Source of the DNA: an uncultured Clostridia bacterium
Lineage (GTDB): Bacteria; Bacillota; Clostridia; TANB77; CAG-508
Assembly (NCBI GenBank): GCA_948896235.1
Contig: CAQUUC010000004.1
Span: forward strand, 65,554-129,553
DNA length: 64,000 nt
Reading direction: 5' to 3'
Each line of letters begins with the position of its first letter. The first letter of the stretch is position 1. The position numbers and the translations under genes were made by a program. Positions 31,277 through 35,916 of the stretch are shown in pieces. Under the pieces are notes generated by a model. That model did no database searches. It was not told where the DNA came from and saw only the letters and a program-made list of their open reading frames with translations.

Positions 31277-31285
31277 AATAAATGG

Positions 31286-31318
31286 GAAAGAGGACTCATG
31301 TTTATGAGTCCTCTTTGA
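31286..31318. terminator. Bidirectional terminator after adhE (overlaps 3' end of the convergent gene)
   Basis: AAGAGGACTCAT / ATGAGTCCTCTT hairpin. Confidence 0.6.
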
Positions 31319-32420
31319 TTAATGTGCCATACCCCAAAGCTTCATTGAATTTGATTTCATCGCCAATGTTAATATTGGACCAATCTTCAAAAGAAAAAGT
31401 ATATGTTTTTTCTTTTTCTTTTATAAAACCGGTAACATAGTACTCTTCAGTTTTAGACCCAGTCCGTTCATCATCAGCAAGAGTAACTTTACCCCAATAG
31501 GGGGTATCGGTTGTACCAGAAGTTTTTACACTTCGTTCATAGATCCATTTATCGATTTCATAATAATACTTAGTATCATACACAGGAACACTGATATAAA
31601 CTGGTTCTTCGTATTCTTCCTCATAATATTCAGTTCGATAAATTGGAATTTGTGAAGTGATTTCTTCTGCATACCCATTGCCCAAATCCCTATAACCTGT
31701 CACTACTTCCTCGTATCCATCTAAGACTTCTTCACTTACAGTACGAGTCTTGGTTTCATAGTGATCAACAACTTGGTCATACCCTGAAATTTCTTCTTGG
31801 GTATAATGCAAGCGAGCACCAGATGGTAACGACCAGCCGCTTTCGTCAACTGTTTGAAGTCGATCAATGTTGATAGACCGTTCCCAAGATAAAGCAGTAA
31901 CTTGCATAGTTTTCTCTTTAGGGATAAGAGCATATACAAGTCCAGAAAATCCCAGAATAGATAATAAAACAATAATGATAATCTGGAAATTAAATCTTGA
32001 GGCTAAGGTACTATGGAGTTTTTTGGAAGCATTACTTTTGGGTGATGAAGAAGGGGCAGTGTTGGTATCAGAATAATGAGAGTCAGTATCATACACAGAA
32101 GTTTTTGTTTCTGCTACTTTCTCTTTTTGAATCTCAAAATAGTTCTTGCTCTCATTTGTTCTTGGAGCACCGCATGACACACAAACAGAATCGTTATCTG
32201 AGTTGTAAGAGTCGCAGAAATTACATCTCCAATGAGGATTTCTGTTTATGTGTACTGCTTCTTCATCTGATACATAGTTACTCTTTACGTCGCCAGGTAG
32301 ATGATACTTCAAATCTTTACCCATAGGCTGTCCACAATTCGGACATTCCCGTAAAGGGCCACTAATGCCTTTAGTTCCGCAGAATGGACAATCCCATTCC
32401 ATTTTAATTAATCTTCCCAT
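31302..32420 (-). CDS. Membrane protein with N-terminal tandem zinc-ribbon domains
   Basis: CPFCG..CPNCG and CNFCD..CVSCG zinc ribbons, central TM helix, extracellular Tyr/Glu-rich domain. Strong RBS AGGAGG. Confidence 0.6.
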   Translation of the reverse strand: MGRLIKMEWDCPFCGTKGISGPLRECPNCGQPMGKDLKYHLPGDVKSNYVSDEEAVHINRNPHWRCNFCDSYNSDNDSVCVSCGAPRTNESKNYFEIQKEKVAETKTSVYDTDSHYSDTNTAPSSSPKSNASKKLHSTLASRFNFQIIIIVLLSILGFSGLVYALIPKEKTMQVTALSWERSINIDRLQTVDESGWSLPSGARLHYTQEEISGYDQVVDHYETKTRTVSEEVLDGYEEVVTGYRDLGNGYAEEITSQIPIYRTEYYEEEYEEPVYISVPVYDTKYYYEIDKWIYERSVKTSGTTDTPYWGKVTLADDERTGSKTEEYYVTGFIKEKEKTYTFSFEDWSNINIGDEIKFNEALGYGTLIKEDS

Positions 32421-32661
32421 ACTCTTCCTCCTAAAATAATATAATCTTCTTGTAAATATTCATAAAAGCCAATACAGGAATAAATAAAAGAAGTTATATA
32501 AATTATAGCATGCTTTATGTAACTTTACAACATATAATTAGAATTTATATTATAGCAATACACAAAAATTGACAAAAAGAACAAAATGTATTGAAATTGA
32601 TACGAACATATGTTACATTAGTAATGCCTTTCTATAAAAGGTAGAAGGGAGGTACATAAAA

Positions 32662-32730
32662 ATGCGAAACTTACTAAAACTATTAGCACTCATTATAGTT
32701 TACTTAATTGTAAATGATAATAAAGACTAA
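32662..32730 (+). CDS. Small hydrophobic peptide, 22 aa (MRNLLKLLALIIVYLIVNDNKD); Fst-like type I toxin candidate
   Basis: Strong RBS GAAGGGAGG 8 nt upstream. TM helix plus acidic tail. Followed by a bidirectional terminator. Its SD/start region (GGTACATA..TGCGAAACTTACT) is duplicated about 120 nt downstream inside a convergent promoter-driven antisense transcript. Confidence 0.45.
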   Translation: MRNLLKLLALIIVYLIVNDNKD

Positions 32731-32735
32731 TAGTA

Positions 32736-32770
32736 AAAGACTAAGGACTGGCATCCTTAGTCTTTTTTAT
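32736..32770. terminator. Bidirectional terminator shared by peptide mRNA and convergent antisense RNA
   Basis: AAGACTAAGGA ctggca TCCTTAGTCTT, followed by TTTTTT on the plus strand and preceded by an A/T-rich run. Confidence 0.5.
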
Positions 32771-32806
32771 TGCGGTACATATTTGCGAAACTTACTGCAA
32801 TATTAC
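32736..32806 (-). ncRNA. Putative antisense small RNA (type I antitoxin candidate), about 70 nt
   Basis: Transcribed from the minus-strand promoter at 32813-32842. It contains the reverse complement of the duplicated GGTACATATTTGCGAAACTTACT segment, so it can pair with the SD and start codon of the peptide mRNA. Ends at the shared terminator. Confidence 0.4.
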
Positions 32807-32812
32807 AATAAT

Positions 32813-32842
32813 AGTATACTATATTTTCTACTATATGTCAAA
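32813..32842 (-). promoter_or_regulatory. Putative sigma-A promoter on minus strand (TTGACA-18-TATACT) for the antisense RNA
   Basis: Reverse complement shows TTGACAtatagtagaaaatatagTATACT, located between the clpE stop and the repeat copy. Confidence 0.4.
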
Positions 32843-32878
32843 TTTTCTAAAAGTTTTATGGAATAATTTTCATATTTT

Positions 32879-35167
32879 TTATTTCTTATTAAAAGTCAAT
32901 GTATCATTTGAATAGTCGACAATAACATTTTCGCCTTCTACTAATTCAGTACGTAAAATCATTTCACTTAAAACATCTTCTATATATCTTTGGATAGCAC
33001 GTCTTAAAGGTCTTGCTCCATATTTATAATCTGTACCTTTACTTAATAAGTACTCTTTTGCAGAAATTGTTACTTCTAAAGAAATGTTTTTATTTTGTAG
33101 AGCCTTTTTAGTATCTTCAAGCATAATATCTACAATTTGTAGTAATTGTTCTTTATTTAAACTATCAAAGATAATAATTTCATCAATTCTATTTAAAAAT
33201 TCTGGTCTAAAAGTTTCTTTTAAGCTATCCATAGTTTTATTTTTATCCATAGTTTGTTTTCCAAAACCAATAGAATTTCCATTTAAATTTGAACCAGCAT
33301 TTGAAGTCATTATAATAATAGTATTTTCAAAACTTACAGTATTCCCTTGAGAATCAGTTAATTTTCCATCATCTAAAACTTGAAGAAGAATATTAAATAC
33401 ATCATGGTGGGCTTTTTCAATTTCATCAAACAATACAATTGAATATGGATTTCTCTTAACCTTTTCAGTTAACTGCCCTGCATCATCATAACCAACATAT
33501 CCAGGAGGAGAACCAATAAGTTTAGAAGTAGAATGACTTTCCATATATTCAGACATATCTATTCTAATAATAGAATCTTCCTTACCAAACATTTCATATG
33601 CTAAAGATTTTGCAAGTTCAGTTTTACCAACACCAGTAGGTCCAACAAATATAAAAGAAGGTGGTCTTTTTGTACTCTTTAAACCAGCACGATTTCTTCT
33701 AATAGCACGTGATACAGCTGAAACTGCTTCATTTTGTCCAACAACTCGTTTATGAAGGTTATTTTCAAGACTAAGTAATTTTTCGGTTTCTTCTTGAGTA
33801 ATTTTCTTAACAGGAATTTTAGTCCAATTTTCAATAACAAGAGCAATATCTTGAATAGTTAATTGTTTAGGCTTTAATTTATTACTTAAAGTATCAATTT
33901 CTTCTTGTAATCTACATTCTTTAGTTTTAAGGTCAGCAGCTTTTTGGTAATCCTCAGTAGAATCAGCATCAGCTGCTTCTTCTTTTTCTTCTTGAACTTT
34001 TTTAAGCTGATTTTTTAGTATTTCCAATTTATATAAATCCTTATTATCTAAATTAATTCTAGAGCAAGCTTCGTCTAAAATATCTATTGCTTTATCAGGC
34101 AAAAATCTATCATGAATATACTTTTCAGACATTATAACAGCATTTGAGATTACATCATTTGAAATCTTAACTTTATGATAATCTTCGTAATATTTTTTAA
34201 TTCCTTCTAGTATTTTTATTGTATCTTCCACATTTGGTTCTTCAACAATAACAGGTTGAAATCTTCTTTCTAATGCAGTATCTTTTTCAATATATTTTCT
34301 ATATTCTCTAAGAGTAGTAGTACCAATAAGTTGAATATCACCATTTGCTAAAGAAGGTTTCAAAATATTTGCAGCATTAGTTGCATTTTCAGCATCACCT
34401 GCACCCATAATATTATGAATTTCATCAATTACTAAAATAATATTACCACACGCTTTACATTCATCAATAATAGCCTTCATACGTGCTTCAAATTGGCCTC
34501 TAAACTGAGTTCCAGCAATAACTGCTGTCATATCTAGTAGATATACTTCTTTGTTTAAAAGTTTTGCAGGTACTTTTGAATTTGCAATTTTAATAGCAAG
34601 ACCCTGTGCAATAGCAGTTTTACCAACACCAGGTTCACCAATTAAACAAGGGTTATTTTTAAGACGTCTATTTAAAACTTGTATAATTCTTTGGATTTCT
34701 CTATCCCTTCCAATAACAATATCAAGTTCGTTATTACGAGCTTTAGAGGTTAAATTTGTTCCGTAAGTATCTAAATATTTAGTCTTTTTTTGTTTATTAA
34801 TTTTTTTATCTACTTTAACCTTTTTATTAGAATTACTAGAAGACTCTTGCTCTTTATTTTCTTGTTTAACTCCAAAAATAGCACCAAGAGGAATAGCAGT
34901 ACCATTCATACCGTCAAGACTTAAGTCACTATTGGATAAAGTTTCAGTTATATCTTTAAAAATATCTTCAAATTGACTTGACATATCTTCTAAATTAACT
35001 TTATCCCCATCTAAAATATTAGACTGATTTGCAAGTACTTCTAAAGGATTGATCCCTTTTTCTTTTGCACAATTATAGCAAAAACCATCTAATTTATCTT
35101 CACCATTATCCTCTTTATTATTAACAAAAATGATAGCGGGATTTTTCTTACATATTGAACATAACAT
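32879..35167 (-). CDS. clpE: ATP-dependent Clp protease ATP-binding subunit ClpE (N-terminal zinc finger, two AAA+ modules)
   Basis: N-terminal CxxC...CxxC zinc finger (MLCSICKK..CYNCAKE). Two Walker A/B nucleotide-binding domains (GEPGVGKT; GPTGVGKT). ClpP-binding loop region. Start chosen at the internal Met (MLCSIC) with RBS GGAGAAAT. Confidence 0.85.
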   Translation of the reverse strand: MLCSICKKNPAIIFVNNKEDNGEDKLDGFCYNCAKEKGINPLEVLANQSNILDGDKVNLEDMSSQFEDIFKDITETLSNSDLSLDGMNGTAIPLGAIFGVKQENKEQESSSNSNKKVKVDKKINKQKKTKYLDTYGTNLTSKARNNELDIVIGRDREIQRIIQVLNRRLKNNPCLIGEPGVGKTAIAQGLAIKIANSKVPAKLLNKEVYLLDMTAVIAGTQFRGQFEARMKAIIDECKACGNIILVIDEIHNIMGAGDAENATNAANILKPSLANGDIQLIGTTTLREYRKYIEKDTALERRFQPVIVEEPNVEDTIKILEGIKKYYEDYHKVKISNDVISNAVIMSEKYIHDRFLPDKAIDILDEACSRINLDNKDLYKLEILKNQLKKVQEEKEEAADADSTEDYQKAADLKTKECRLQEEIDTLSNKLKPKQLTIQDIALVIENWTKIPVKKITQEETEKLLSLENNLHKRVVGQNEAVSAVSRAIRRNRAGLKSTKRPPSFIFVGPTGVGKTELAKSLAYEMFGKEDSIIRIDMSEYMESHSTSKLIGSPPGYVGYDDAGQLTEKVKRNPYSIVLFDEIEKAHHDVFNILLQVLDDGKLTDSQGNTVSFENTIIIMTSNAGSNLNGNSIGFGKQTMDKNKTMDSLKETFRPEFLNRIDEIIIFDSLNKEQLLQIVDIMLEDTKKALQNKNISLEVTISAKEYLLSKGTDYKYGARPLRRAIQRYIEDVLSEMILRTELVEGENVIVDYSNDTLTFNKK

Positions 35168-35337
35168 ATAAATATTTCTCCAATCTAATTTAAGCATTTA
35201 ATTTTCTACCAAAATATAATACATTAAATATAGCTAAAAGTCAAGGAAAATAAGGAATTCTTAATGTGTACGTTTTGTGAAAAATTTAGGTATAATTCCA
35301 AAAAAGGTAACAATACTATAAACAGGAGTTGATTATT

Positions 35338-35478
35338 TTGAAAGATATTAAAGAAAAAATACTTGAATTAATAGAAGAAATAGATGAAATGATAAGAAAT
35401 AATGTAGATAAGAAAAAGATTGAAATTAAGAGAAAGGAATTAGATAAATTATTGCTTATATATATTAAAGACATCTAA
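35338..35478 (+). CDS. Spo0E-like sporulation regulatory protein (aspartyl-phosphate phosphatase family), 46 aa, TTG start
   Basis: Not in the ORF track (TTG start). RBS AGGAG 7 nt upstream. Sequence LKDIKEKILELIEEIDEMIRNNVDKKKIEIKRKELDKLLLIYIKDI carries the Spo0E-type (S/K)ELDKL(I/L) motif. Confidence 0.5.
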   Translation: MKDIKEKILELIEEIDEMIRNNVDKKKIEIKRKELDKLLLIYIKDI

Positions 35479-35574
35479 TGCAATAAAAACGAACAATATA
35501 CGCAAATAATTCATTTATACTATTAGAAAAATTTGTTAGCATATTAATATATTAGTAGATAAAGGTGATAATAA

Positions 35575-35916
35575 ATGAAGAAAAAAAGTATAATAACAAT
35601 TGGAGAAAACTTACAAAAGATTAGAAAGAGTAACGGATATACGCAAGAAATGTTAGCAGAAAAATTGGAATGCTCTACAAGATACATAAGTGATGTAGAA
35701 CAAAATAATTCTAAACCTTCTTATGAAATATTAATTAAGTTTTGTAATGTTTTTAATATTGGACTAGATGATATATTTAAAGATTATTTAAATATAGATA
35801 AAGGTAGAATTGTTAACTACGAGCTAAATGGATATGAGAATTTGAAAACAAAAGATAAAAGTACAATAGCACATTTAATCAGTTTCTTTAATAAAGAAAT
35901 TAATAATAAGAAATAA
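35575..35916 (+). CDS. XRE-family helix-turn-helix transcriptional regulator
   Basis: N-terminal HTH_XRE (GENLQKIRKSNGYTQEMLAEKLECSTRYISDVEQNNSKPSYEILIKFCNVFNI). Confidence 0.75.
   Translation: MKKKSIITIGENLQKIRKSNGYTQEMLAEKLECSTRYISDVEQNNSKPSYEILIKFCNVFNIGLDDIFKDYLNIDKGRIVNYELNGYENLKTKDKSTIAHLISFFNKEINNKK

Follow-up and report, generated by a model that had tools for sequence, protein, structure and literature searches.

A probable type I toxin-antitoxin-like module of par(pAD1) design in the adhE-clpE interval of an uncultured mouse-gut Clostridium

Annotation systematically overlooks type I toxin-antitoxin modules, and to our knowledge very few of them are known in Clostridia outside Clostridioides difficile. 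The 64,000-nt stretch of DNA analysed here (contig CAQUUC010000004.1, positions 65,554 to 129,553 of the forward strand; in the following referred to as the window) is from an uncultured mouse-gut Clostridium. Between a gene for a zinc-ribbon membrane protein (31302-32420, minus strand) and the gene for a ClpE-type ATPase (clpE; 32879-35197, minus strand) it has a 458-nt intergenic interval, which is where a first-pass annotation, made from the sequence without database searches, had placed a candidate for such a module. Do the elements in this interval really belong together, is the small peptide that they appear to encode a toxin, and is it related to Fst, the toxin of the par(pAD1) locus from Enterococcus faecalis? 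We find that a cassette spanning about 280 bases between two ordinary genes is probably a type I toxin-antitoxin-like module that lies on the chromosome and follows the plan of par(pAD1)/Fst-RNA II. The best reading of the sequence is that of a narrowly distributed and previously undescribed module of this type, and in this respect the interpretation of the first-pass annotation is supported.

The predicted module has two convergent transcription units with a common bidirectional terminator (Table 1). The strong ribosome-binding site and the 22-codon open reading frame (ORF) that had been annotated are both present. The hairpin that follows the ORF has, as was claimed, runs of A and T on its two sides (the A-run 5', the T-run 3') and is shared by the two transcripts, its stem being perfect over 13 bp; only its coordinates needed correction, from 32736..32770 to arms that lie within 32735-32766. 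These arms (32735-47 and 32754-66) are 100% complementary and enclose a 6-nt loop, CTGGCA. From the clpE stop (32879) to this hairpin there is no terminator in the window, and the hairpin therefore probably ends clpE transcripts as well. The annotated minus-strand promoter is present too, with a spacer of 17 rather than 18 nt and a span of 32841-32813; at the level of consensus matching it is the best promoter-like site within 32300-33000. Its TTGACA is kept in all alleles of the module, including the diverged one of L012, in which the -10 element is TATTAT, and the toxin-less one of L052 (loci of relatives are designated by L numbers; see below). The antisense RNA predicted to start there folds into two hairpins (-24 kcal/mol, z = -6), the 5' one exposing, in its loop of about 16 nt, the sequence that is complementary to the start-codon region, and the second one being the terminator.

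The two transcripts are connected by a direct repeat, which had been described as a 23-nt duplication of 32654..32676 at 32774..32796. The second copy is indeed found there; the first copy begins already at 32651, and the repeat consists of two exact blocks (8 and 13 nt) that are 4 nt apart in copy 1 and 2 nt apart in copy 2, so that the copies differ by a 2-nt indel. Copy 1 covers the final 2 nt of the Shine-Dalgarno (SD) sequence, the spacer, the UG of the AUG and codons 2-5, and copy 2 provides the antisense RNA with the recognition sequence AGUAAGUUUCGCA-AA-UAUGUACC, its loop being complementary to positions -11 to +14 around the AUG. According to initiation-complex footprints, the stretch from the SD end to codon 5 falls within the ribosome-binding window. 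The first-pass annotation had proposed that the antisense RNA can pair with the translation-initiation region of the mRNA and had suggested a pairing prediction. This was done by cofolding, which yielded exactly 21 intermolecular pairs (32651-58 with 32774-81, and 32663-75 with 32784-96) and a gain of -23.4 kcal/mol over the monomers, in agreement with the proposal. The duplex between mRNA and antisense RNA, with a predicted energy of -31 kcal/mol, was equalled in 0 of 1000 shuffles (z = -6.9).

In every fold of the mRNA most of the SD sequence is sequestered by a 5' stem-loop, which appears in the minimum free energy, centroid and alignment folds; its 9 pairs are invariant in all alleles and hence offer no test by co-variation. 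Upstream of it no further helix was found in the folds of this mRNA, whose 5' end is only predicted (P1 or P2 in Table 1); with the P2 start, the SD stem-loop falls at the extreme 5' end of the mRNA. The predicted length of about 144-166 nt is at or slightly under the 150-400 nt usual for type I toxin mRNAs. Between the -35 and -10 elements of P2 lies a perfect 10-nt palindrome, AACATATGTT (32605-32614), which is invariant in all module alleles and could be a candidate operator of a DNA-binding regulator. In the lineage of L011 and L039 the TACATT of P2 is changed to TGCATT; reading this as promoter inactivation was dropped as an over-interpretation, since either P1 or P2 may be the active promoter.

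From these elements we infer transcription from the predicted promoters, translation of the ORF, a block of translation by RNA pairing, and toxicity of the product. A plus-strand mRNA of about 145-165 nt, with its SD held in the 5' stem-loop, would encode the 22-residue hydrophobic peptide, and the convergent minus-strand promoter would give rise to the antisense RNA of about 72 nt ending at the same bidirectional terminator. The two RNAs would pair over 8 + 13 bp around a small internal loop, the pairing possibly being begun by the complementary terminator loops. This would cover the ribosome-binding window and block synthesis of the peptide. When the antisense RNA drops, the peptide would be translated and inserted into the membrane, and growth would be arrested.

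Table 1. Predicted features of the module; coordinates are those of the window.
Feature	Position	Strand	Basis and remarks
Toxin promoter region, two overlapping sigma-70-like candidates	32569..32619	+	Nearly invariant in all five module-bearing sequences
P1: TTGACA(32569-74)-17-TGAAAT(32592-97)	start near 32604	+	Predicted; read from sequence
P2: TTGAAA(32591-96)-17-TGt-TACATT(32614-19)	start near 32626	+	Promoter scan, 9/12 with TG
SD-sequestering 5' stem-loop	32627..32649	+	CCUUUCUAU (32627-35) pairs with GUAGAAGGG (32641-49)
Shine-Dalgarno sequence GAAGGGAGG	32644..32652	+	9 nt 5' of ATG; invariant across all alleles
Repeat copy 1, mRNA antisense target	32651..32675	+	GGTACATA (32651-58), spacer AAAA, TGCGAAACTTACT (32663-75)
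Putative toxin ORF, 22 codons, MRNLLKLLALIIVYLIVNDNKD	32662..32730	+	ORF reading; purifying selection; same stop position in L012
Long imperfect hairpin, coding region and ORF 3' end	32679..32734	+	Fold; kept in L012, 6 pairs changed on both sides
Bidirectional intrinsic terminator	32735..32768	both	13-bp perfect stem, common to both transcripts
Predicted antisense (antitoxin) RNA, about 72 nt	32735..32806	-	Start near G32806; ends predicted
Repeat copy 2	32774..32796	-	GGTACATA (32774-81), spacer TT, TGCGAAACTTACT (32784-96)
Antisense promoter TTGACA(32841-36)-17-TATACT(32818-13)	32813..32841	-	11/12 consensus matches

For comparison, metagenome-assembled genomes of uncultured Clostridia and mouse-gut metagenomes were used, all of them metagenomic assemblies. 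An identical zinc-ribbon protein is encoded on many metagenomic contigs, the intergenic region of which is the same as in the window. L048-50 differ from the window solely by a stop codon change from TAA to TGA. L038 has five synonymous changes, the conservative exchange A9V and, again in place, TGA instead of TAA, with a pN/pS of 0.06; as judged from this value, the ORF is under purifying selection. L011 and L039, which are two independent assemblies, have the L038 substitutions plus a 2-nt insertion (AA) in the A-run just before the stop (aligned to window 32719-32730; around position 4700 of L011), by which the ORF is frameshifted through the terminator to about 50 codons.

Most informative is L012, which carries a deeply diverged allele (B; that of the window is A). 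Its 5' untranslated region (5' UTR) and SD are near-identical to those of the window, and from after the SD to the antisense promoter the divergence is strong. The ORF, MKNLLKVLKLYLIYLIVKHLND, has 22 codons with the stop position unchanged, and the two peptides have the pattern M[RK]NLLK.L.L..[VI]YLIV....D in common. Block 2 of the repeat reads AAAACCTACTTA in both copies, and block 1 reads GTTTGCAA in one copy versus GTCTACAA in the other, both differences being G.U-compatible in an RNA duplex. The first-pass annotation had expected the pairing of repeat and peptide mRNA to recur in related genomes, and it is kept in L012: the cognate duplexes have energies of -29 to -33 kcal/mol, and those of A with B only -15 to -17 kcal/mol. 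Complementarity of the antisense RNA to the toxin mRNA is thus allele-specific. The L012 terminator has another sequence of the same length with a perfect 13-bp stem (AAAAGGACTAGGA/TCCTAGTCCTTTT), four positions of which are changed on both arms relative to the window. The L012 antisense promoter is TTGACA-17-TATTAT, and the RNA predicted from it again exposes a recognition loop of 16 nt on a 5' hairpin and ends with the terminator hairpin, its stem sequences being unrelated to those of the window. It should be noted that the covariation term of RNAalifold (four sequences) is near zero, since the set contains three almost identical sequences and the L012 terminator is placed out of register by MAFFT. 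Given this weak alignment-based covariation, the stem compensations were read from the individual folds. The comparative data argue that the peptide is translated, that the mRNA is structured and that pairing between the repeat copies is under selection.

The presence of the module is patchy among close relatives. It lies between adhE and clpE in an interval (window 31277-32878) that is hypervariable even among genomes whose ClpE is at least 95% identical. In the window this interval contains the zinc-ribbon gene and the module, in L038 these two and a gene for a DUF2442 protein, in L052 a DUF4160/DUF2442 pair and only the antisense half of the module, in L042-44 and L053, as well as in the more distant L045 (ClpE 92% identical) and L046 (88%), aspS behind a T-box-type leader, and in L054 the shared terminator alone. 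The interval looks like a hotspot at which small cassettes are inserted and deleted. In relatives whose ClpE is 85-95% identical, the region downstream of clpE contained the aspS T-box-type leader or unrelated genes and no module; nor is there one in L013, in which the zinc-ribbon protein is 71% identical and the upstream neighbour is another one.

Two lineages indicate in which order the module is lost. Aligning L052 (GCA_022791395.1; 4403-4960, reverse complement) with window 31277-31330 and 32770-32845 reveals a deletion of 31326-32776, with GT microhomology at the junction, that takes the zinc-ribbon gene and the promoter, ORF and terminator of the toxin. What is kept, the antisense promoter and the recognition sequence, is fused to the adhE terminator as an "orphan antitoxin", for which the adhE terminator could serve as minus-strand terminator. 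The toxin is frameshifted in one lineage (L011 and L039) and deleted in the other; the antisense gene is present wherever the toxin is, and a toxin without an antisense gene was not found among the contigs seen. In this small sample the order of loss is that expected of a toxin-antitoxin pair. The adhE terminator hairpin, AAAGAGGACTC...GAGTCCTCTTT (window 31285-31316), extends over the stop and the final codons of the zinc-ribbon gene, which is convergent with adhE. In L054 this hairpin terminates adhE and clpE, and in L052 it has become the 3' end of the orphan antisense gene.

The peptide begins with M-[RK]-N, continues with LLK.L.L..[VI]YLIV and ends with a polar charged tail (NDNKD or KHLND). 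The charged N-terminus, the hydrophobic helix and the charged C-terminal tail are all present as in the Fst/Ldr superfamily, and the mean hydrophobicity of the core is on par with that of Fst and IbsC. Of the hydrophobic peptide with an acidic tail that had been annotated, the hydrophobic core and the charged ends stand, whereas the tail NDNKD is of mixed charge with a net charge of -1. Tyr14 is the sole conserved aromatic residue; Trp is absent, and Pro, Gly and Cys are absent from both alleles. With 22 residues the ORF falls within the 20-60 aa used as criterion for the hydrophobic proteins of type I systems (PMC8594479, PMC6563280). This length suffices for a type I toxin, since IbsC, with only 19 aa, retains its toxicity even when shortened to 15 aa, 10 of them hydrophobic (PMC8309996).

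Judged by all libraries searched, the peptide is without detectable relatives. Both alleles retrieved 0 families from Pfam and NCBIfam at E <= 10, and searches of PHROGs and the PDB gave nothing meaningful (one PHROG of unknown function, E = 0.039). With Rfam there was no relevant match at E <= 10 at the locus (32000-33300), including the RNA II antitoxin model, and in the whole 64-kb window no family at gathering score, hence no curated riboswitch, T-box or small RNA (sRNA) family, tRNAs not having been scanned separately. The exact 22-aa sequence is absent from a collection of 15 billion proteins and has therefore never been called as a complete gene. Nucleotide and translated BLAST searches (blastn, tblastn) against plasmids and phages gave chance-level matches or none; in viral contigs the 5'-UTR pattern had 0 matches, and of 470 candidates for the peptide pattern 0 were confirmed. 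A scan of Joint Genome Institute (JGI) metagenomes with the peptide alignment returned one contig only, on which the module is identical.

How close is the relationship to par(pAD1)? Loci of the par type characteristically have convergent promoters, a bidirectional intrinsic terminator, direct repeats (DRa/DRb) over the toxin initiation site and an SD-sequestering 5' stem-loop; they also have a 5' upstream helix (5'-UH) and often a YUNR loop, which is lacking in some par homologues (PMC7472228). The first-pass annotation had already likened the locus to RNA I/RNA II of par(pAD1) on account of promoters, terminator and repeats; the SD stem-loop, the analogue of the RNA I 5' stem-loop (5'-SL) (PMC7472228), can now be added, so that all four features are found at the sequence level. 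By this layout the locus belongs to the par design class. Indeed, it has further properties in common with par(pAD1) and the par-like loci of other Firmicutes: two direct-repeat blocks transcribed in opposite directions, an sRNA that would pair over the SD-to-start-codon region and has no overlap with the ORF, terminator loops that are complementary to each other, and a small hydrophobic peptide that is charged at its N-terminus and polar and charged in its tail. A YUNR-type CUGG is present in the loop CUGGCA of the A-allele mRNA; there is none in the B-allele loop AUGGUAC. The mRNA of par(pAD1) is longer (about 210-230 nt versus the predicted 145-165 nt), the 5'-UH was not identified here, and the host is an uncultured gut Clostridium rather than E. 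faecalis.

The peptides are another matter. Those of par loci have about 30-33 aa, Fst being 11 residues longer than the peptide described here, and are defined by the motif PXXXG(C) and a conserved Trp, P and G being essential for toxicity (PMC7472228). Of the annotation's statement that the peptide is typical of the Fst/Ldr/TxpA class, the charged/hydrophobic/charged layout has survived, whereas a profile match, PXXXG(C) and Trp are lacking. By sequence, the peptide is not a member of the Fst family, since the PXXXG and Trp motifs are absent and there is no match in Pfam, NCBIfam or Rfam.

Other known systems share part of the properties. In SprA1/SprA1AS from Staphylococcus aureus the antisense RNA is encoded 3' of the toxin gene and overlaps it at the 3' end only, and its non-overlapping 5' domain represses by pairing with the translation-initiation region (PMC8594479), as is proposed here; the toxin, PepA1 (30 aa), is of the Fst family and unrelated in sequence to our peptide. 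Ibs of Escherichia coli is likewise very short and almost purely hydrophobic. However, the Sib RNAs overlap the ibs ORF fully on the opposite strand, and this Gram-negative system does not have the direct-repeat or shared-terminator design. Within the class Clostridia, C. difficile has convergent type I genes, for example CD2517.1-RCd8 and CD0956.2-RCd10, the toxins of which are also without homology to other families (PMC6563280). These toxins have 34-59 aa and Lys-rich tails, their RNAs have a long perfect cis overlap suggesting mRNA degradation, and the modules are located in prophages or beside CRISPR arrays. Here, in contrast, a peptide of 22 aa is combined with a trans-like pairing that derives from a repeat and would take place at the start codon.

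Several observations weigh against the proposed toxin-antitoxin function. The peptide matches no toxin family in Pfam, NCBIfam, PHROGs or the PDB, and its hydrophobic core, in which a Lys is conserved at position 6, comprises about 14 residues, few for a membrane span. As the frameshift in L011 and L039 shows, either the peptide does not need its exact C-terminus or the gene is in decay in these two. In the minus direction the terminator is followed by only four U. The module was seen in one copy only, no second one having been found in the window, and only in a few very closely related uncultured gut Clostridia. The comparison is one of three near-identical A-type variants plus a single deep one, A versus B, and the shared changes of both direct repeats could partly be due to gene conversion rather than to selection for pairing. 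One may ask whether the same RNA circuit controls a peptide that is not a toxin, such as a physiological membrane peptide, e.g., one that modulates a membrane protein, with a cis-encoded antisense RNA simply tuning its synthesis. Conservation and co-variation fit any translated peptide under antisense control and are silent on toxicity; the absence of similarity to known toxins and the short hydrophobic core fit as well, and so does the chromosomal, single-copy location in the window with adjoining housekeeping genes. That we nevertheless consider this explanation unlikely has the following reasons. Silencing in several layers, by an SD stem-loop and by an antisense RNA at the start codon, is characteristic of toxic products (PMC7472228); the module comes and goes among near-identical genomes; its losses are one-directional, the toxin going first and the antisense gene being kept; and allele-specific recognition sequences suit addiction-type modules better than a housekeeping peptide. 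An ancestry from Fst/RNA II, with a true homologue that has become extremely diverged and shortened, would be compatible with the mechanism proposed. The regulatory architecture parallels that of par feature by feature (PMC7472228), Fst-like sequences have been reported from some Clostridia (PMC6563280, PMC7472228), and the sequence of charged N-terminus, hydrophobic core and polar charged tail is that of Fst. The missing motifs, the lack of any Pfam or NCBIfam match even at E <= 10, the 11 missing residues and the unmatched RNA II model make such a descent quite improbable.

It is also conceivable that the elements have no joint function: the hairpin would be the clpE terminator, which it probably is in addition, the ORF spurious or decaying, the repeat a duplication scar and the promoter a chance match. 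Promoter-like matches are indeed frequent in this AT-rich region (8 versus 5.0 expected), and when the intergenic region was dinucleotide-shuffled, 18 of 2000 shuffles, or about 1%, had a direct repeat of 13 nt or more within 200 nt; by itself, the 13-mer repeat is only moderately unusual in AT-rich DNA. The combination is a different matter. All elements are kept in the strongly diverged allele, where the changes in three stems as well as those in the two repeat copies are compensated, and the ORF is under purifying selection. A generic scan for an SD, a hydrophobic ORF of 15-45 aa and a downstream hairpin past which the start region is repeated returned, from both strands of the window and 41 fetched loci (about 0.4 Mb), only the module and its orthologues. 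In L038 and L052 a cassette with DUF2442 or DUF4160 genes separates clpE from the module, and the antisense part is therefore not the 3' UTR of clpE there. An accidental assembly is thus very improbable. Even less credit is due to a leader function, i.e., to the ORF and terminator as a leader-peptide attenuator or to the minus-strand promoter and hairpin as leader of the zinc-ribbon gene, suggested by the hairpin directly after a short ORF and by the direction of the minus-strand promoter. Both versions were rejected. In the window no plus-strand gene lies past the terminator, on which clpE converges, and the plus-strand cassette that does lie downstream in L038 and L052 appears to own a promoter, TTGACT-17-TATAAT (read by eye). 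A conserved promoter of the zinc-ribbon gene itself is found at 32530-32502 (TTGTAA-17-TGc-TATAAT), a stretch that is also conserved in the module-less L013, and Rfam gave no riboswitch or leader family match.

Two observations concern the neighbouring genes. The clpE gene is intact in the window (772 codons); in several relatives (L001, L011, L012 and L041) it is split into two overlapping ORFs near residues 545-580, the halves in L001 having 567 and 203 aa, which may reflect either a genuine frameshift or pseudogene or a mistake in the assembly. Divergently upstream of clpE (window 35329-35916) there are a small ORF of about 46-49 codons and a gene for a 113-aa HTH_3-family regulator. Both are kept in most of the relatives' loci that reach upstream of clpE, with the exception of L046 and L047.

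What would a type I module of this kind mean? Tentatively, and somewhat beyond what we would call probable, the locus may represent an unrecognised family of ultra-short (22-aa) non-Fst type I toxins with a complete par-type circuit, located in the hypervariable adhE-clpE interval of uncultured mouse-gut Clostridia, with alleles that co-evolve and do not cross-react; in that case the architecture would either predate Fst and be more widespread than it or have arisen convergently. Its practical weight is limited by the narrow distribution in a few uncultured mouse-gut species. The mechanism is a familiar one, and what makes the locus worth an experiment is that a par-type circuit is combined with a peptide other than Fst and that two apparently orthogonal alleles occur naturally. 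With their different recognition sequences, these alleles provide a ready test of the specificity of RNA antitoxins and might be used as compact, portable translational switches. If the toxin-antitoxin reading is true, the peptide would found a new family of very short toxins, only Ibs being shorter among those compared, and the par regulatory design would not be tied to Fst-type peptides.

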